IMG/VR virus record: IMGVR_UViG_3300028588_000021
Span: 3,917-67,916 of that record
Source of the DNA: a virus
Taxonomy: Duplodnaviria > Caudoviricetes
Length of the DNA: 64,000 bases
Reading direction: 5' to 3' (one strand)
Shown: positions 1-6,307 of the stretch, in pieces
Layout: every line of letters begins with the position of its first letter
How positions within the stretch are numbered: the first letter of the stretch is position 1
Notes under the pieces: model-generated
The model's input: only the letters and a program-made list of their open reading frames with translations
Database searches by the model: none
Told to the model about the DNA's origin: nothing
Position numbers and translations under genes: made by a program

Positions 1-117
1 GGCGGAAATCGAGATGGTAGCCAAAAAGATCGAGGATGCGTTTGCGCGGGCGTTCCCCGTGGTGTACGCTACCTTTAACGACAACGGGCGAGTAGCCCCT
101 TAGAAGAATGGAAGAAA

Positions 118-330
118 ATGATTGCACTAGCACTATTTAGTTCGGTCCTGCTGTTGGCTGGCTACACGCTAGCTGGGATCATGTGGGTTGGGGCGTTCAA
201 GGCTCTTACGCAGCGGAAGTTCTGGGAGTCAATTTACCTGCCTGCCATTGCATGGCTGTGGACGGGCGGGGTGATCCTTGCAACCTGGGGAACCTGGGCT
301 GTGTGGGTGGCTGCGACGGTGGGCCTGTGA
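118..330 (+). CDS. hypothetical membrane protein
   Basis: 70-aa ORF with two hydrophobic stretches; purine-rich RBS upstream. Confidence 0.6.
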   Translation: MIALALFSSVLLLAGYTLAGIMWVGAFKALTQRKFWESIYLPAIAWLWTGGVILATWGTWAVWVAATVGL

Positions 331-473
331 AGATTGAAGATGACGGCGTTACTGCCGAGTATATTTTTGGGCACTACCCTGATGGAGTCGAGTGTGTGCG
401 CTTTACTAAAGATGATGCAGTGGTAGATGTGCCGTTGCATGTTCTTCAGCTTGCTTGGCACGCCTGGGTTTGA
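327..473 (+). CDS. hypothetical protein
   Basis: GTG start overlapping the previous TGA (GTGA coupling); C-terminal part of track ORF 183..473. Confidence 0.5.
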
Positions 474-480
474 CAACAGC

Positions 481-816
481 ATGACTAATCTAGATGACCT
501 AGTGCACCCTGTAGATAGGTTTCTGTCTCGGACAAAGGTAGACCATAATGGTTGCTGGGTGTGGCAAGGCGCAAATAGTCGTGGATACGGCATTTTTCAG
601 CTTGCCACAGCCACTCCAGTACAAGCGCATAGGTATGCTTACAAATATTGGCGGGGTGAAATACCTGATGGTTTGCAGGTTGACCACCTATGCCGTAACG
701 TGAGCTGTGTTAATCCGGGTCATCTAGAAGCAGTAACTCAGCTAGAAAACATGAAACGGTCACTGCCCTACCGTGCAGAAAAGCGCAGACTTGACAAAAG
801 TGGGGCACCCGTATAG
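481..816 (+). CDS. HNH endonuclease
   Basis: GCWxWxG, AHRYAY and [16 protein letters not shown] motifs of phage HNH nucleases. Confidence 0.9.
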
Positions 817-848
817 GCTGGTGCCACAACGACATGGAGGAGGATAAC

Positions 849-1079
849 ATGGGTAAGACGAAAGACAAAGCACAGGAGCTGCTGGATCGAACCAACGCTA
901 TTCTGGATGAGCACTATGAGGGAAAGTCCCGAGTGCACAATGATGCGCTGAGGGGCCTACTGGGTGCAGTTGTGGTGCTGGAAGACCTGCTGGACCAGGA
1001 CGAAACAGGGCTGACGTACACCAAGGTGCTGGAGCTGTGGGAGAAAGAACTGACGATCAAGGAGGTCAACGGACTGTGA
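849..1079 (+). CDS. hypothetical protein
   Basis: GGAGGA RBS, ATG, coupled to the next gene. Confidence 0.65.
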   Translation: MGKTKDKAQELLDRTNAILDEHYEGKSRVHNDALRGLLGAVVVLEDLLDQDETGLTYTKVLELWEKELTIKEVNGL

Positions 1080-1483
1080 GTAAGTTTATTGTTGTGAGTA
1101 ATGGGTTCGATTGGTCGCTGGCAAAGGTTGACGAGGGCGATGACGTTGCTTACGAGGTCATCAACTTGTCGAGTGAACAGGAGCTGAAGAGCATTGCCCG
1201 AGCACTGAACGTGCGAGACGAGGCTGCTGTTGTCAATGTACCGGCTCTGACCGCCACTGAGGAGCGCATCCAGGCCCTTGCCGATGCTGGACTTGATGCT
1301 GAAAGGGTTAGCGAGGAGGTTGAGGCATACAGTCAGTACAAAAACAGCGTAGGCGACTACCACTTCGACTACTACGAAGTTCTCGATAGTGGCTACACCA
1401 TCAACGTGTGTGAGTCATTGAACAGTGTAGATCGCTACCTGGATCTTATCGAAGAGCAGGCTAAAGAAGCGGGTGTGCTGTGA
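1076..1483 (+). CDS. hypothetical protein
   Basis: GTGA start/stop overlap; acidic ORF. Confidence 0.65.
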   Translation: MSKFIVVSNGFDWSLAKVDEGDDVAYEVINLSSEQELKSIARALNVRDEAAVVNVPALTATEERIQALADAGLDAERVSEEVEAYSQYKNSVGDYHFDYYEVLDSGYTINVCESLNSVDRYLDLIEEQAKEAGVL

Positions 1484-1668
1484 GTGAGCTTCAGAACGCC
1501 GAATTTAGCTTCGATCCGCAGTATCCGTTCGCTTTCTTGAGCGTTCGGGAGGATGAGTACGGCGAGCAGTACATTGACGTCGAAACTAACGCCAATTCGA
1601 CCGAAGAATTGGCCCAGGTGCTGCTTCAGGGCCTTGTTTCGACCCAAAAGCTGCTCGAAGAAGACTAA
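1480..1668 (+). CDS. hypothetical protein
   Basis: GTGA overlap with previous stop. Confidence 0.6.
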   Translation: MSELQNAEFSFDPQYPFAFLSVREDEYGEQYIDVETNANSTEELAQVLLQGLVSTQKLLEED

Positions 1669-1690
1669 AACCACCCAAAAGCACCAAAAT

Positions 1691-1718
1691 GGGGCCGTTT
1701 GCACGTAAAAACGGCCCC
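1691..1718 (+). terminator. 10-bp hairpin, possible terminator or processing site
   Basis: GGGGCCGTTT / AAACGGCCCC in an intergenic gap; no U-tract. Confidence 0.4.
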
Positions 1719-1742
1719 TCATAGACATTAGGAGGCAAAATC

Positions 1743-1991
1743 ATGTCACAGCTCGATGAAAAGACCCAAATGGCCGCACTGGACCACGCACACGCCACGG
1801 ACCTCGAAGTAGCTCTGCTTTTGGCAACAGATGGTGATGTTACCCCGTATGGCAATTATTGGGAGAACCGAACCGCTATTTTCGACGGTGACGAGATGAT
1901 TTTTGTCTACAAGCACGATAATGACTCCGACATTGCTGATGAGACGTTCACAGTGGAAATTCGGGTCTACAAGGGAGAGTTTGACAAGTGA
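1743..1991 (+). CDS. hypothetical protein
   Basis: AGGAGG RBS, ATG. Confidence 0.7.
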   Translation: MSQLDEKTQMAALDHAHATDLEVALLLATDGDVTPYGNYWENRTAIFDGDEMIFVYKHDNDSDIADETFTVEIRVYKGEFDK

Positions 1992-2185
1992 GCGAGATTC
2001 ACGCCAAGGATGGTAGTGTTGTGACCGTGGGAGATAACTACGAGGGCATCCCTACTACAGGTGACGACGTAGTGTATGTTGAGATTCTTGACTGGAATGA
2101 CACTGCTGTGGTTGGCCTAACAACAGATGAGGCCATTGATTTGATGGCACAGCTCGCTGAGGTCGTCAACAAATACATCAAGTAA
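1988..2185 (+). CDS. hypothetical protein
   Basis: GTGA overlap with previous stop. Confidence 0.6.
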   Translation: MSEIHAKDGSVVTVGDNYEGIPTTGDDVVYVEILDWNDTAVVGLTTDEAIDLMAQLAEVVNKYIK

Positions 2186-2202
2186 GCAGCAAGGAGGCGT
2201 CA

Positions 2203-2439
2203 TTGAAGCTAGAAATTGAAGACCTGACCAAGGAATTTAAGGGCCGGGCACCCAGTATCACTATTACGCTGGAGAAGAACGGCACAGAAACAGAAGATGC
2301 TGAGGTGGAGCTTGTTATCGAAGGCTTTGATAAGGTTGAGAGCTACATCATTCTCTCCGAGATTATCGACTCGGTGTACGATGGGCTTACTGTGCGACAG
2401 CTAGAGGAGGTGGAGGCTTATTTTGAAGATGAAGAGTGA
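2203..2439 (+). CDS. hypothetical protein
   Basis: AAGGAGG RBS, TTG start, acidic ORF. Confidence 0.65.
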   Translation: MKLEIEDLTKEFKGRAPSITITLEKNGTETEDAEVELVIEGFDKVESYIILSEIIDSVYDGLTVRQLEEVEAYFEDEE

Positions 2440-2668
2440 GCTAAGCGCTCTTTGGTGGGGTAACTCAGCAGTGATTGTCGGTGCGTTTGGTGCTATGTGG
2501 ACACTGGTCATTGGACTTTGGGGCCTTACCTTGATTGGTATTGCGCTTTTTGTGGTGGGTGTAGTAGTGTTGGTCAAGGCGTTCAAGCACTATCAGCTTG
2601 GGAATAAGACGCTCATGGAGTGGGGAACGGAGGCCATATATGGCGAACAGCACAACGACCGTAGCTAG
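2423..2668 (+). CDS. hypothetical membrane protein
   Basis: two predicted TM helices; start uncertain. Confidence 0.55.
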   Translation: MKMKSELSALWWGNSAVIVGAFGAMWTLVIGLWGLTLIGIALFVVGVVVLVKAFKHYQLGNKTLMEWGTEAIYGEQHNDRS

Positions 2669-2855
2669 TGGAGGCGGTGTGAGCATCATCGGCCTTTTGG
2701 GGCTGTTGTTTATTGGTCTTAAGCTAGCCAACGTTATTGCATGGAGCTGGGTGTGGGTTTTGGCACCTTTCTGGATTCCGTTTGCTCTGGCGATTGTCTT
2801 CCTCATCGTTGGATTCGCCGCTGTGCTTATCGGCCATGCCCTAAGTAGGCGGTAG
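2640..2855 (+). CDS. small membrane protein
   Basis: GLLGLLFIGLKL...WSWVWVLAPFWIP pattern common in small phage membrane proteins. Confidence 0.7.
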   Translation: MANSTTTVASGGGVSIIGLLGLLFIGLKLANVIAWSWVWVLAPFWIPFALAIVFLIVGFAAVLIGHALSRR

Positions 2856-2856
2856 A

Positions 2857-3123
2857 GTGGGTAACCGAGTGCAGGCAGGTTTCCAGCCCGAGGGGCAGAA
2901 TGTAGAAGAAGAAGAAGAGTCAAGCAACGTAGACCACCCCAAGCACTACAACGTGGGCCAGATCGAGGTCATTGACGTGATAGAGGACTGGAATCTTGAC
3001 TTTCACCTAGGCAATGCTGTAAAGTACATTGCAAGGGCAGAGCACAAGAACAACGCTCTCGAAGACATCTCCAAAGCTCAGTGGTATTTGGACCGAGCAA
3101 GAGAACTTCGAAGAAGGACTTGA
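2857..3123 (+). CDS. DUF3310-like (SaV-like) protein
   Basis: VDHPKHY, FHLGNAVKYIARA and DxxKAQWYL motifs. Confidence 0.85.
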   Translation: MGNRVQAGFQPEGQNVEEEEESSNVDHPKHYNVGQIEVIDVIEDWNLDFHLGNAVKYIARAEHKNNALEDISKAQWYLDRARELRRRT

Positions 3124-3149
3124 CAAACGGGCAGGACATCTACTAAGAT
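3120..3149 (+). promoter_or_regulatory. sigma70/SigA-type promoter for the tRNA cluster
   Basis: TTGACA-18 nt-TAAGAT directly upstream of the first tRNA. Confidence 0.75.
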
Positions 3150-3178
3150 AGATGGCAGAGGGTGAAAGCCCCTCGTAT

Positions 3179-3250
3179 TCCTTGGTAGCTCAACGGTAGA
3201 GCAGCACCCTGTTAAGGTGTCGGTTGTTGGTTCGAATCCAGCCCTTGGAG
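3179..3250 (+). tRNA. tRNA-Asn(GTT)
   Basis: cloverleaf; loop CT-GTT-AA; T-loop TTCGAAT; G73; two U-U mismatches in the acceptor stem. Confidence 0.9.
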
Positions 3251-3281
3251 CGAGTGCAGCTCAATAGCTTGCACTAAGTGA

Positions 3282-3345
3282 TCCACATATGCTAGAGTAT
3301 TTCACACCTACAAAGTGTGTACGGCTGGTACGAAGGTAATGTGGG
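3282..3345 (+). pseudogene. degenerate tRNA-like element (anticodon-like ACA)
   Basis: 7-bp end stem TCCACAT/ATGTGGG and CACAC-CTACAAA-GTGTG stem-loop; no proper D or T stem. Confidence 0.3.
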
Positions 3346-3354
3346 TTGCAACAT

Positions 3355-3425
3355 GCGTCCCAAGCATTAAAGTGATGTAGAGGCTTCCAAACCCTCTGAA
3401 CGGCGGGCAGTACGTCGGGGATGCG
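3355..3425 (+). tRNA. tRNA-Trp(CCA), atypical T-loop
   Basis: acceptor GCGTCCC/GGGATGC; loop TT-CCA-AA with C31:C39 mismatch; T-loop GGCAGTA; G73. Confidence 0.75.
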
Positions 3426-3697
3426 CAATGTCGGGCTTAGCGGCCAGACAGAGGAAGTGGCGGAATGAAGCCCCTAGGGATAGGGGGCGAGAATCGCACA
3501 TGGCGGTAGATCAATGCAAGGCTGCACCTAGGGCCAACTGGCTAAAGTGTGGTGGAGGCGATAGACTTAGCGGTCTTGAACGATCTATCCTTAGCGGGTA
3601 ACGTTGTGGTTCTGAGAGCTTATCATGCTGAATGATCCCCTCTCGGTTGTGGGTAGTGGCCCACCTTCCACCGCCCTGGCGGTCAAACCAGGGATAC
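3426..3697 (+). ncRNA. candidate structured non-coding RNA in a tRNA spacer
   Basis: ~270 nt with nested helices (3551-3558/3664-3672, 3560-3565/3584-3589, 3614-3618/3640-3644, 3674-3679/3688-3693) and no credible ORF. Confidence 0.35.
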
Positions 3698-3771
3698 GGG
3701 AATGTAGCTCCAATTGGTAGAGCAACTGCTTTGCAAGCAGAGGGCTGTCGGTTCGAATCCGACCTTTTCCA
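3698..3771 (+). tRNA. tRNA-Ala(TGC)
   Basis: cloverleaf; loop TT-TGC-AA; G3.U70 pair; A73. Confidence 0.92.
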
Positions 3772-3812
3772 CTGCGGGTCCGTTTTTCTAGAGCGTGAGC
3801 GGACCTCGCTGA

Positions 3813-3888
3813 TGCTCGGTAGGCCAACGGTAAGCCGGGGCGCTCATAACGCCTGCATTTGAGGGTTCGACTCCCTCCTGAGCAACCA
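3813..3888 (+). tRNA. tRNA(CAT), elongator Met or Ile2
   Basis: cloverleaf; CT-CAT-AA; encoded CCA; lacks the initiator three-G-C anticodon stem. Confidence 0.85.
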
Positions 3889-3943
3889 CGCCAGACACAC
3901 ATTAGTAGAGCTGGTCGTTTGATGGTATCGTATAACCATTCAT

Positions 3944-4014
3944 CAGTCCGTGGGCCAATGGTAGGTCATTTGCTTTGGAAGCTCAGGGCGGAGGTTCGAT
4001 TCCTCCCGGATTGA
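3944..4014 (+). tRNA. tRNA-Pro(TGG)
   Basis: C1-G72, A73; loop TT-TGG-AA; weak anticodon stem. Confidence 0.8.
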
Positions 4015-4015
4015 C

Positions 4016-4090
4016 GGTAGTGTTAGTGTAATGGCAGCACCACAGCTTGTGAAGCTGTTAGCGCGGGATCGATACCCGTACACCACCCCA
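4016..4090 (+). tRNA. tRNA-His(GTG)
   Basis: G-1:C73; TT-GTG-AA; T-loop ATCGATA; encoded CCA. Confidence 0.88.
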
Positions 4091-4091
4091 A

Positions 4092-4163
4092 GTGTGTATC
4101 GTATAGTGGAAATTACGCTGGCCTGTCGAGCCGGATACAGGGGTTCAATTCCCCTTACACGCG
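4092..4163 (+). tRNA. tRNA-Asp(GTC)
   Basis: cloverleaf; CT-GTC-GA; G73. Confidence 0.9.
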
Positions 4164-4166
4164 CTA

Positions 4167-4199
4167 GAGTGATGACGGCCTTCGGGTTGTAAAGCTCTT
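4167..4199 (+). other. 16S rRNA helix-16-like hairpin in a tRNA spacer
   Basis: GAGTGATGACGGCCTTCGGGTTGTAAAGCTCTT matches the bacterial 16S h16 segment as recalled from memory. Confidence 0.65.
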
Positions 4200-4201
4200 A
4201 T

Positions 4202-4272
4202 GCTCGATTGATGTAATGGTAGCATCGCAGATTCTCAGTCTGTGCGCAGGGGATCGAAACCCCTATCGAGTA
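4202..4272 (+). tRNA. tRNA-Glu(CTC)
   Basis: cloverleaf; TT-CTC-AG; T-loop ATCGAAA. Confidence 0.85.
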
Positions 4273-4328
4273 CGTTCCGTCTAAAGAACATCCACCGTGA
4301 GGTGGGAGCCTTGTTTAGGCAAGGCTAT

Positions 4329-4399
4329 GGCTCTATCGTCTATAGGTAGGACAGCGGTTTTTCAGGCCGCGAGACAGAGTTCGAGTCTCTGTAGAGCTA
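4329..4399 (+). tRNA. tRNA-Glu(TTC)
   Basis: cloverleaf; TT-TTC-AG; T-loop TTCGAGT. Confidence 0.9.
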
Positions 4400-4532
4400 C
4401 GCAACAGAAGAGCGCGCGTCGGCTACGACCATGACGCACACAGGAGTAGCGAACCCACTCGCTAGTGATTACGCTCTAGTAGCGTAATCGATGCCACCCC
4501 TAGTCAAACGAGCTAGGTCTAGGGTTGGCTAT

Positions 4533-4611
4533 GCGTCGGAAGTACCTGGTGGTACAAGCGGGCTGTAAACTCGTTGTTTCGACATGGGAGGTTCGATCCC
4601 TTCCCGGCGCA
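4533..4611 (+). tRNA. tRNA-Tyr(GTA)
   Basis: CT-GTA-AA; variable hairpin TGT-TTCG-ACA; A73. Confidence 0.88.
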
Positions 4612-4686
4612 CTGTCCTTAGGATGGACTAAGCACAAGCTCAAATGTGGTAGCGCCTTTAGCCTCTACTCAAGCCTCTGTGCGTTT

Positions 4687-4757
4687 GCCTTCTTAGCTTA
4701 AAAGTAAAGTCCCGGCTTGAAACCCCGGGGAACGTGGGGCGGTACCACGAGTAGGCA
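4687..4757 (+). tRNA. tRNA-Phe(GAA), atypical T-loop
   Basis: acceptor GCCTTCT/AGTAGGC; TT-GAA-AC; C31:C39 mismatch; T-loop GGCGGTA. Confidence 0.75.
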
Positions 4758-4804
4758 CGGCAGGGGTTGCGACCTGGCTCCGTATGGAGAACAAAACGCA
4801 ATAT

Positions 4805-4878
4805 GGCTCTCTAGGCAACTGGCAGACCACTTTGGCTTAGAACCAGAGATGCTGTGGGTTCGAATCCCACGGGGGCTA
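4805..4878 (+). tRNA. tRNA-Leu(TAG), short variable region
   Basis: CT-TAG-AA; A73; only ~6 nt of variable region. Confidence 0.85.
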
Positions 4879-4884
4879 CGCAAT

Positions 4885-4914
4885 TTGACAGACAACAACC
4901 GAGTAAGGTACACT
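4885..4914 (+). promoter_or_regulatory. internal promoter of the tRNA cluster (leaderless geometry)
   Basis: TTGACA-18 nt-TACACT, with ATG 6 nt downstream at 4921. Confidence 0.8.
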
Positions 4915-4920
4915 GGACAC

Positions 4921-4989
4921 ATGAGCACGATTAGCACAGTCAAGCAGACGGGGACCCAGCAGGGTCGCTCGTCCCGTTGGCGGCGCTAG
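4921..4989 (+). CDS. putative leader peptide MSTISTVKQTGTQQGRSSRWRR
   Basis: ATG at the predicted +1; followed by competing hairpins; composition matches the downstream tRNAs. Confidence 0.55.
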   Translation: MSTISTVKQTGTQQGRSSRWRR

Positions 4990-5010
4990 TTTAGTCTCAC
5001 AGTACTAACT

Positions 5011-5051
5011 ACGCCTCCTCGGTTCAAACAACCAAGGGGGCGTTTCTCTTT
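5011..5051 (+). terminator. intrinsic terminator (candidate attenuator) before tRNA-Ser
   Basis: 13-bp stem ACGCCTCCT-C-GGTT/AACC-A-AGGGGGCGT followed by TTCTCTTT. Confidence 0.75.
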
Positions 5052-5134
5052 GGCTATTGAACCCACGTGGCGTGGGGACGGTCTTGAAAACCGCACGGTC
5101 CGCAAGGGCAGGGGTTCGATCCCTCCGGTAGCCG
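5052..5134 (+). tRNA. tRNA-Ser(TGA)
   Basis: CT-TGA-AA; long variable arm with GCAA loop; G73. Confidence 0.88.
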
Positions 5135-5178
5135 CAGTAATTCACTTTTACAGTGAATTAGCTCGAACAAGTTAATAT

Positions 5179-5262
5179 GGATAATGAACTGCTAGGGTTA
5201 GCAGGGCGGCTTGCTAAGCCGTACGGTCCTCCGGGGCTGGGAATCGTGCTCTCCGTTATCCG
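5179..5262 (+). tRNA. tRNA-Ser(GCT)
   Basis: TT-GCT-AA; long variable arm; T-loop ATCGTGC; G73. Confidence 0.82.
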
Positions 5263-5263
5263 C

Positions 5264-5334
5264 TAGTCACAAGCATTAAGGTGATGCACCTGGCTCTTAC
5301 CCAGGGGAAGAGGGATCAGTACCCTCGTGACTTA
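5264..5334 (+). tRNA. tRNA-Lys(CTT), atypical T-loop
   Basis: CT-CTT-AC; T-loop ATCAGTA; U1:U72 mismatch. Confidence 0.8.
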
Positions 5335-5335
5335 C

Positions 5336-5408
5336 GCGATACGAACCAACATGGCTAAGGTACCTGGCTTCCACCCAGGGTAACGGAGTTCGATTCTCCG
5401 GTGTCGCT
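5336..5408 (+). tRNA. tRNA-Gly(TCC)
   Basis: cloverleaf; CT-TCC-AC; U73. Confidence 0.9.
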
Positions 5409-5424
5409 CGCAACAACTAAATAT

Positions 5425-5497
5425 GCCAGTGTAGCTCCAACGGTAGAGCAACCGCCTTGTAAGCGGACGGCTGCGGGTTCGATTCCTGTCACTGGCC
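5425..5497 (+). tRNA. tRNA-Thr(TGT)
   Basis: canonical cloverleaf; CT-TGT-AA. Confidence 0.92.
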
Positions 5498-5499
5498 CC

Positions 5500-5567
5500 G
5501 GTCCTCGCTCTGGGAGCAAGCATCCTTTACACGGAAGCTCCGTACAGTTCGATCCTGTAGGGGACTA
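5500..5567 (+). tRNA. tRNA-Val(TAC), reduced D-arm
   Basis: TT-TAC-AC; D-arm GCTC-TGG-GAGC joined directly to the acceptor stem; A73. Confidence 0.7.
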
Positions 5568-5580
5568 CGCAATAACATAC

Positions 5581-5656
5581 GCGCATGTATGCCGCCTGCC
5601 TACGAAGCAGGAGAAAGCTAACTGGACACATGGAGGTTCGACTCCTCTCATGCGCA
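5581..5656 (+). tRNA. tRNA-Arg(ACG), D-armless with a 20-nt variable region
   Basis: perfect acceptor GCGCATG/CATGCGC, anticodon arm CCTGC-CTACGAA-GCAGG and T-arm; only 7 nt in place of the D-arm. Confidence 0.65.
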
Positions 5657-5657
5657 C

Positions 5658-5732
5658 TTCCCACTGGTGTAATTGGCAACATACCTGGCTCTGAACCAGG
5701 AGTACGAGGATCGTAACCTTGGCGGGAAACCA
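5658..5732 (+). tRNA. tRNA-Gln(CTG)
   Basis: CT-CTG-AA; T-loop ATCGTAA; encoded CCA. Confidence 0.85.
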
Positions 5733-5758
5733 TCAACCAATATGAAGGAGGCAACATA

Positions 5759-6064
5759 ATGGGATACTACGACAACCCTGTAGCGACACCTGAGAAATAC
5801 GGCTTTGAGTTTGTGGGTGAGGTAGAGAAGAGCGGTTACTCATACGAGTTCGACCTCCTTGCTGTGCTCAAGAACGACCAGGGCTACTATCTGACAACCG
5901 ATTCTGGTTGCTCTTGCCCTACACCCTGGGAGTCTCACACTGAGGGCGACCTCACAGGCCCTCTGACACCAGAGCAGGCTCGTGAAGAAGCTACCAGCCT
6001 TTGGGAGCTGAGCAACAAGTACGACGCACACGAGTTTGTAGCGCTACTCGACAGCATCGTGTAA
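5759..6064 (+). CDS. hypothetical protein inside the tRNA cluster
   Basis: GGAGG RBS; 101 aa; DSGCSCP motif. Confidence 0.8.
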   Translation: MGYYDNPVATPEKYGFEFVGEVEKSGYSYEFDLLAVLKNDQGYYLTTDSGCSCPTPWESHTEGDLTGPLTPEQAREEATSLWELSNKYDAHEFVALLDSIV

Positions 6065-6070
6065 GTCTTT

Positions 6071-6146
6071 ACGCGGGTGTCCACTGGCGGTAGCAGCTCC
6101 GGCTTTGAACCGGCAGTCATTGCAGGTTCGATTCCTGCCCCGTGTG
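6071..6146 (+). tRNA. tRNA-Gln(TTG)
   Basis: CT-TTG-AA; T-loop TTCGATT; G73. Confidence 0.8.
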
Positions 6147-6150
6147 CTAT

Positions 6151-6222
6151 CCCTCGTTAGTGTAACGGTACCACTCTGGACTTTTACTCCATGGAATCTG
6201 AGTTCGAATCTCAGGCGAGGGA
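6151..6222 (+). tRNA. tRNA-Lys(TTT)
   Basis: CT-TTT-AC; canonical T-arm; A73. Confidence 0.88.
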
Positions 6223-6233
6223 CAATTAAACAT

Positions 6234-6305
6234 TGTGCGTTGGCTGAACGGTAAGGTCTGGGCCTGCAAAGCCTAAGCTCGTCGGTTCGACTCCGACACG
6301 CACGT
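6234..6305 (+). tRNA. tRNA-Cys(GCA)
   Basis: CT-GCA-AA; U73. Confidence 0.9.
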
Positions 6306-6307
6306 CC

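Follow-up and report, generated by a model that had tools for sequence, protein, structure and literature searches.

An array of tRNA genes in the 64,000-nucleotide (nt) stretch of Caudoviricetes phage DNA analyzed here (the window; IMG/VR record IMGVR_UViG_3300028588_000021) is interrupted, directly before tRNA-Ser(tga), by a promoter, a short open reading frame (ORF) and an intrinsic terminator. We consider it likely that this module is a ribosome-mediated transcription attenuator, in which a leaderless ORF acts as a multi-amino-acid "sampler" and gates the second half of the array, 13 tRNA genes. The reading is carried by the amino acid composition of the leader, which follows the tRNA genes behind it in relatives and before other tRNA blocks, and by the predicted folding of the leader transcripts; transcription start, leader translation, termination and stall-dependent readthrough are events that we infer from sequence. 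An earlier note on this DNA had interpreted the region as a translation-sensing attenuator, and this interpretation is supported by the sequence comparisons described below.

The leader promoter (4885–4914, + strand) has a −35 box TTGACA at 4885–4890, an 18-nt spacer and a −10 box TACACT at 4909–4914. The ATG of the 22-codon leader ORF (4921–4989, + strand; TAG stop at 4987–4989), which encodes the peptide MSTISTVKQTGTQQGRSSRWRR, lies 6 nt 3' of the −10 box. Because ATG 4921 is at the usual start-site distance from the −10 box, the transcript would be leaderless; it is 131 nt long, and most of it is ORF. The ORF itself is predicted to form a hairpin, P1 (regions 1:2; 4922–4999, + strand; −36.2 kcal/mol), whose outer helix pairs 4929–4935 with 4985–4991 and so sequesters the left arm of the antiterminator. 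The antiterminator hairpin (regions 2:3; 4979–5018, + strand; −13.9 kcal/mol, with −10.6 kcal/mol for the core pairing of 4982–4995 with 5004–5015) holds the UAG stop in its left arm, and its right arm takes the bottom 5–8 nt of the 5' arm of the terminator. The terminator (regions 3:4; 5011–5043, + strand) is a stem-loop of 13 bp and −19.4 kcal/mol, its 5' base lying 21 nt after the stop codon. It is followed by the U-tract TTCTCTTT (5044–5051, + strand), the last base of which adjoins tRNA-Ser(tga), starting at 5052. The earlier note had read TTGACA-18-TACACT with a leaderless ATG at 4921, and behind it the 22-codon ORF, the hairpin over the stop codon, the 13-bp terminator and the U-tract before tRNA-Ser; the sequence confirms the promoter coordinates, and all of the other elements are in place.

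Consensus promoters of the TTGACA type are few in this phage, about five in 64 kb, and two of them are in the array (at 3120 and 4885). The terminator at 5011–5043 is the only strong intrinsic terminator inside the array. Rfam cmscan (E ≤ 1 over positions 1–12000 of the window, gathering score over eight related loci) returned only tRNA matches in and around the leaders, and none of the Pfam families matched the leader.

Composition of the leader and of its homologues

Among the 21 non-initiator codons of the window's leader, 20 belong to the downstream amino acid set {S,K,G,T,V,R,Q,C,I}, and eight of its nine amino acids are used; our recount agrees with the figures in the earlier note. The set is unaffected by three tRNA-like genes of the array that the search programs did not call. 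In the long ORFs of the phage, 49% of residues fall in the set. Stop-free 21-codon windows of the same genome reach 20/21 in 12 of 62,786 cases (1.9e-4), none of 269 random ATG-initiated short ORFs (sORFs) reaches a fraction of 0.9, and the probability that a random 21-mer uses at least eight of the nine amino acids with at most one outsider is 3.5e-6. One could suppose that the ORF arose by chance in the spacer between promoter and terminator, given that the hypothesis was formed after the window's ORF had been seen and that short open frames are common at 55% G+C, the base composition of this 67.9-kb genome (of which the window is bases 3917–67916). The later, independent tests agree with the initial composition, however, be it in Curtobacterium phage Yappy and seven further relatives, in a small array with a different tRNA set (L254), in a second leader (leader 1) or in Microbacterium phage Zooman, and we regard a chance ORF as extremely improbable.

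Relatives were identified through their terminase, of which metagenome assemblies contain many relatives, and the array regions of L172, L170, L252, L083, L165, L164, L085 and Yappy (L001) were compared. Most of these come from Logan, ENA and JGI contigs; terminase alignment gave three or four close relatives in IMG/VR. Yappy is the closest cultured relative, with a terminase identity of 69% and an identical tRNA order, and it was the one relative found by a DNA search of the phage collection. The arrays of L163, L167 and L169 lie beyond the sequence stretch covered, which placed these phages outside the leader comparison. In IMG/VR, a scan with a single terminase sequence gave no relatives, and leader-motif patterns returned the known loci only, plus one chance match within a protein-coding gene (L335). 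An exact 30-mer of tRNA-Gly gave no matches. With the DUF3310 neighbor gene as query, 80 loci were obtained, in which the terminator/leader pipeline found no further leader.

The module stands directly before tRNA-Ser(tga) in all eight relatives (terminase identity 61–88%). Each has a promoter with −35 TTGACA or TTTGCA and a −10 box at 17–18 nt spacing. With the window included, the leader ORFs have 17–24 codons and the stop-to-terminator distance is 18–27 nt in all nine leaders; their terminators have at least 10–13 bp (−16 to −19 kcal/mol in the copies evaluated), with a U-tract that adjoins tRNA-Ser(tga) in nine of nine. Protein genes are inserted between tRNA-Leu and the leader in L085 and L170, so the module travels with the downstream block. 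In Yappy the module lies at about 8,798–8,946 of PQ868972, and the record carries no annotation in the leader gap. The leader peptides are loosely alike across relatives (for example, MSTQQVRTTVSGIKSGA, MNVTQGTTSKRGQSVIVSFVVL, MTKCISTQKRGTQSGVRSFAVG and MSICSIVKQTGTRQGRSSVGRC), with some recognizable motif in common.

Confinement to the downstream set is a property of one reading frame. Over the nine leaders, frame 0 has 90% of its codons in the set (164 of 183), frame +1 48% (87 of 180) and frame +2 44% (77 of 176). Of 57 derived residues in an alignment of the peptides, 46 remain within the set, versus 51% expected from single-base neighbors of set codons (binomial 3e-6), and selection on in-set composition is, on this evidence, ongoing. 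The window and L170 differ by a compensated frameshift: one base deleted and one inserted put five bases out of register (RWRR versus VGRC), after which the frame is restored, and the new residues are again in the set. The residues allowed are V and I and not L, M or A, K and R and not H, Q and not N, and G and not A or P. Such a selection fits no physico-chemical class but does fit the tRNA partition.

These observations bear on whether the frame is used at all. The region could be a cis element that acts as RNA only, for example a put-like processive antiterminator or a set of processing and stability hairpins, with an incidental open frame. There are indeed two stem-loops between promoter and terminator, and the other two frames are also fairly open; conservation of the open frame alone is not significant, since the other frames also carry few stops. 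We nevertheless judge this explanation to be very unlikely, because in the window's phage family the ATG of every one of the twelve leaders stands at a fixed 6–7 nt from the −10 box (6 nt in Zooman), the frame is restored after insertions and deletions, and the distance between stop and terminator is kept. The frame-0 specificity of the composition bias speaks against put-type antitermination as well.

The small array of L254 (terminase identity 62%) consists of tRNA-Asn, the module, and then tRNAs for Pro, His, Trp, Asp and Thr. Its leader, MTIVTTTTVDHPPM, is rich in T, D, H and P. Nine of its 13 codons fall in {P,H,W,D,T}, to which 21% of codons belong, and its composition is the most extreme among the 92 sORFs of the locus. 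Codons for D, H, P and W account for 4 of its 13 codons versus 2 of 183 in the other leaders (Fisher 1.7e-4), and codons for S, K, G, R, Q and C for 0 of 13 versus 105 of 183 (2.8e-5).

A second module, leader 1, was flagged in L165 by a blind pipeline for terminators adjoining tRNA genes, and its copies in L083 and L164 were then found by eye. It lies before tRNA-Ala (L165, 5430–5541; L083, 5137–5257; L164, 5817–5947) and has a promoter, an ATG 6–7 nt after the −10 box and a terminator. The peptides are MNEMFAYELHLAADPA in L165, MMFELDLHLAAYPA in L083 and MMYFAHLLAEDPAV in L164. The block behind leader 1 serves Ala, Met, Pro, His, Asp, Glu, Tyr, Phe and Leu (for the Phe genes, confirmation came at a relaxed threshold). 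Of the codons of leader 1, 39 of 41 are in {A,M,P,H,D,E,Y,F,L}, and each of the three peptides uses all nine amino acids, for which the probability in a random 13-mer is 4e-5. Leader 1 is absent from the window, L172, Yappy and L252. L165, L083 and L164 also have the leader before tRNA-Ser(tga) (leader 2), so that two leaders can coexist in a single array, with no amino acid shared between their sets and each set reflecting the block behind it. The expectation of the earlier note that leader composition would track the downstream tRNA content in relatives was thus borne out three times, by the nine homologous leaders, by L254 and by the second leaders.

A like module is present in Microbacterium phage Zooman (OK040793), an unrelated, cultured phage of 193 kb, before a Pro-His-Met-Asp-Glu-Phe-Leu block. 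It reads TTGACA-17-TACCAT-6-ATG, followed by the leader MRNSYELDFHLEPLWGV and a terminator (L338, 4912–5024, corresponding to ~78,911–79,023), and is unannotated in the record. The candidate module is therefore seen in the Curtobacterium-type actinophage family and in one jumbo-sized Microbacterium phage.

Folding of the leaders and the proposed switch

The predicted fold of each leader transcript consists of a long P1 made by the ORF and of the terminator, in many cases with a small hairpin in the spacer (z −4 to −7). P1 and terminator vary in sequence from clade to clade but fold in every case. For masked folding, the nascent RNA up to the terminator loop was folded with a 28-nt ribosome mask stepped along the ORF. 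Seven leaders (leader 1 of L165 and L083; leader 2 of L172, L165, L164, L085 and L254) behave alike. When the ORF carries no ribosome, P1 forms and the terminator's 5' arm is left free; when a ribosome is placed on early or middle codons, 6–11 nt of this arm pair with the segment around and immediately after the stop codon; and once the ribosome stands on the last codons or on the stop, the arm is free again. The pattern is cleanest in leader 1 of L165 and L083. It is partial in leader 2 of L083, at codons 6–12 only, and in Zooman the arm is paired without a ribosome and becomes free only with the ribosome on the last codons. Compared with shuffled arms, 2:3 pairing shows a modest excess (combined p 2.5e-4, from sequences that are not independent). 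In the model, then, masked folding reproduces the 1:2 / 2:3 / 3:4 logic of trp-type attenuators in most copies. By this logic, outsiders would be tolerated only near the end of the ORF, where a stalled ribosome no longer gives antitermination. Of the 19 outsiders over the nine leaders, three are Asn residues at codon 2, one is a Leu at codon 4 of L172, and all others lie within the last six codons.

The earlier note had pointed to the stop codon inside the left arm of the antiterminator, where a ribosome at the stop could mask it, and this geometry recurs in the relatives. It had also cautioned that the terminator looks the more stable structure and that the switch would be kinetic. Folding energies and equilibrium probabilities agree with the caveat: the window's antiterminator is weaker than its terminator, which dominates at equilibrium, and the switch must therefore be kinetic, like that of the trp leader.

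The proposed switch would work as follows. Host RNA polymerase would start at the A of ATG 4921, and a 70S ribosome would load on the leaderless 5' AUG. The 22-codon leader would then sample at least one codon for nearly every amino acid that has a downstream tRNA gene. If decoding is fast, a ribosome at the UAG would cover the left arm of the antiterminator (4979–4995), the terminator at 5011–5043 would form and transcription would end at 5051. If there is no ribosome, the ORF would fold into P1, the same arm would be sequestered and transcription would likewise terminate. This is what would be expected of read-in transcripts from the promoter at 3120, in which the leader is internal and lacks a Shine-Dalgarno sequence; they would adopt the P1 fold and end at the terminator (5011–5051). 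A ribosome dwelling at about codons 2–17, for want of an aminoacyl-tRNA of the set, would break P1 and leave the antiterminator free to take the base of the terminator stem. With the antiterminator formed, polymerase would read on through tRNA-Ser to tRNA-Ile. In this way, the supply of precisely the gated tRNAs would come under negative feedback.

A promoter scan found no consensus promoter between the terminator and block 2, the tRNA genes behind it, so under the criteria of that scan block 2 would be made only by readthrough. This bears on a different explanation, that the region is a small gene in its own right, encoding a micropeptide or small RNA, whose ordinary constitutive terminator also insulates the two blocks, block 2 being supplied by leaky readthrough or by an unrecognized promoter. 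A terminator more stable than any alternative, and always formed at equilibrium, would be as expected for such a gene; so would the very stable folding of the transcript, as for a structured small RNA, and the recognizable motif that the peptides share. The allowed residues, which fit the tRNA partition and no physico-chemical class, would not be, nor would the switches of composition in L254 and leader 1. The peptide sequence is poorly conserved and matches no Pfam or Rfam family, and with no promoter found 3' of the terminator we think a separate small gene improbable.

Could the leader respond to translation as such, without codon specificity? Any translating ribosome would then open P1 and let polymerase through, and such a translation-coupling gate would separate translated transcripts of the leader promoter from untranslated read-in, or would report overall translation capacity. 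The same anatomy fits, the match to phage anticodons at the codon level is only mild, and the leader mixes many amino acids with no run of one. What a non-specific gate leaves unexplained is that confinement to the downstream amino acid set is found in frame 0 only, that the set switches in L254, and that two leaders in one array have disjoint sets matching their blocks. We therefore hold it to be an unlikely explanation.

Several observations do weigh against the proposed attenuator. The masked-fold pattern is not clean in the window itself, nor in L170, Yappy and L252, and the window's terminator has at equilibrium a formation probability of at least 0.79 at every ribosome position. Taken leader by leader, 2:3 complementarity is weak (p 0.008–0.8) and its register is not conserved. 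The type-A leader peptides are homologous, and the composition counts given above are therefore not nine independent samples. In L254 the promoter is degenerate and the transcription start uncertain, which weakens that case somewhat. Block 1 of the window lacks a leader of its own, which would leave half of the array unsensed. Finally, by strict wobble 122 of 164 codons of the nine leaders are decodable by the phage anticodons versus 110 expected, a mild excess; the leader matches mainly the amino acid and with it the tRNA family.

The tRNA array and its surroundings

The array extends from 3179 to 6448 on the + strand. An upstream consensus promoter, TTGACA-18-TAAGAT (3120–3149, + strand), lies directly 5' of tRNA-Asn and is taken to drive block 1. 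It has neither a leader ORF nor a terminator; between this promoter and tRNA-Asn only short hairpins and no matching ORF were found. Block 1 (3179–4879, + strand) comprises Asn, a Trp-like gene, Ala, Met, Pro, His, Asp, Glu, Glu, Tyr, Phe and Leu(tag). Block 2 (within 5052–6448, + strand) begins with Ser(tga), a Ser(gct)-like gene, Lys(ctt), Gly(tcc), Thr(tgt), Val(tac), Arg(acg) and Gln(ctg), and continues after a DUF7574 gene (5759–6064) with Gln(ttg), Lys(ttt), Cys(gca), an Arg(tct)-like gene and Ile(gat), ending at 6448. The earlier note had listed 25 tRNA genes. ARAGORN and Rfam called 21–22 of these; the total of 25 is reached with three further genes, Trp-like (~3335–3405), Ser(gct)-like (5177–5263) and Arg(tct)-like (~6308–6373), which are recognized only by reading the anticodon loop or by eye, or by synteny with the Yappy annotation.

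Some members of the array are unusual. The Trp-like gene, in the gap between tRNA-Asn and tRNA-Ala, has the anticodon loop UUCCAAA closed by a C-C mismatch and was called by neither ARAGORN nor Rfam. The same gap, of 446 nt, contains a weak Rfam match to the manA RNA motif (3429–3674; 34 bits, gathering score 55). Lys(ctt) (5264–5335) has an odd T-loop that is conserved with Yappy, a TTCGA T-loop is missing from the Ser(gct)-like gene, and Arg(acg) (5581–5656), of 76 nt, has an unusually long stretch 3' of the anticodon stem. Directly 3' of tRNA-Ser(tga) there is a short palindrome or hairpin, TTCACT..AGTGAA, at 5141–5163 of the window and at 4060–4081 of Yappy (L001), which is not in the other relatives. 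The DUF7574 gene embedded in block 2 encodes 101 amino acids and has a strong ribosome-binding site; a homologue is located elsewhere in the array of L085 (~1152–1463). A DUF3310 gene (2857–3123) lies just 5' of the array, as it does in the relatives checked (L252, L254 and L168).

Extra protein-coding ORFs, inserted at differing sites within the arrays of L172 (2280–2680), L164 (5457–5804) and L083 (6085–6400), resemble HNH-type homing endonucleases by eye. The other small arrays, of L171, L168 and L182, have no convincing module. In L168 (5530–5610) and L182, which have four-tRNA arrays (Asn, Trp, Pro, Tyr), a promoter is followed by a 9-bp hairpin with UUUU directly before tRNA-Asn; a possible leaderless GTG-initiated ORF runs through this hairpin, and its composition match is not significant. 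Three terminase relatives, P0096, P0098 and P0102, are ~860–870 amino acids long and contain the homing-endonuclease domains PF05204 and PF14528, which suggests inteins in their large terminase.

Significance and relation to known attenuators

Proposed roles of phage tRNA arrays are compensation for codon usage, replacement of degraded host tRNAs and escape from anticodon nucleases; to our knowledge, nothing is known about the regulation of these arrays. We lean, if only slightly, toward the wider view that phages run closed-loop control of their own tRNA supply block by block, by means of modular and widespread leaders that sample one codon per tRNA and are wired to terminators. A block may be transcribed only when its codons decode slowly, and the leader may move, and be re-coded, with its block. 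Slow decoding could have its cause in a mismatch of codon usage with the host, in late-gene demand or in host defenses that cleave tRNAs. The share of block-2 amino acids is barely different between structural and replication genes (0.50 versus 0.46), and late-gene demand is thus unsupported as a reason for separate gating.

If the proposed reading is true, attenuation of tRNA genes would be known for the first time, the molecule sensed would, as in few other cases, also be the molecule made, and phages would be measuring decoding capacity in real time. The question is directly testable, as Yappy and its host Curtobacterium flaccumfaciens are in culture, and relatives with two leaders of disjoint composition provide a built-in swap system. 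The same logic would give an annotation rule for unannotated regulatory sORFs in phage tRNA arrays, and the module could serve as a compact, programmable sensor of a chosen tRNA supply.

The leader is probably a variant of leader-peptide attenuation, in a form of control not described for tRNA genes; full-text literature searches turned up no phage or bacterial tRNA genes reported to be controlled by a leader peptide. It resembles the attenuators of amino acid operons (trpL, hisL, leuL and pheL, and the multivalent thrL and ilvL of enterobacteria), which also have a short, promoter-near ORF rich in test codons and an intrinsic terminator with alternative 1:2 / 2:3 / 3:4 pairings, so that the position of the ribosome decides on termination. 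The thrL and ilvL leaders, like those described here, mix several amino acids. In the trp leader, the terminator is more stable than the antiterminator, at about −20 versus −12 kcal/mol. Amino acid operon attenuators control biosynthetic enzymes, whereas here tRNAs would be controlled and the product sensed would be the product made; and they test a run of one to three amino acids, whereas here eight or nine are represented about evenly. The mRNA here would also be leaderless, the element is phage-encoded, and no relation in sequence or in Rfam was found; Trp_leader, His_leader, Leu_leader, Thr_leader and similar Rfam families gave no covariance-model match in window positions 1–12000 or in the eight related loci.

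Two other systems sense components of decoding. The pheM leader of the E. coli pheST operon is a case of leader-peptide attenuation of a decoding component for the very amino acid tested; what it controls is an aminoacyl-tRNA synthetase, it tests a single amino acid, and it belongs to the host. In T-box riboswitches, as here, the choice between terminator and antiterminator is set by the state of a specific tRNA. A T-box, however, needs no translation, since its specifier codon and T-box sequence contact the uncharged tRNA directly, and the element described here is too short for this; the T-box model RF00230 had no match in the same Rfam search (window positions 1–12000 and the eight related loci).

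Actinobacteria offer a precedent for the leaderless ORF. Leaderless AUG-initiated sORFs are translated in these bacteria and act as attenuators (PMC4633059; bioRxiv 10.1101/834739). The polycysteine leaderless sORFs of mycobacteria, which define a Cys "ribulon" (bioRxiv 10.1101/834739), are likewise actinobacterial leaderless AUG sORF sensors in which a stalled ribosome remodels the downstream RNA. The mycobacterial Cys-sORFs act on a ribosome-binding site, whereas the leaders described here would act on a terminator and U-tract before untranslated tRNAs and sample eight or nine amino acids.

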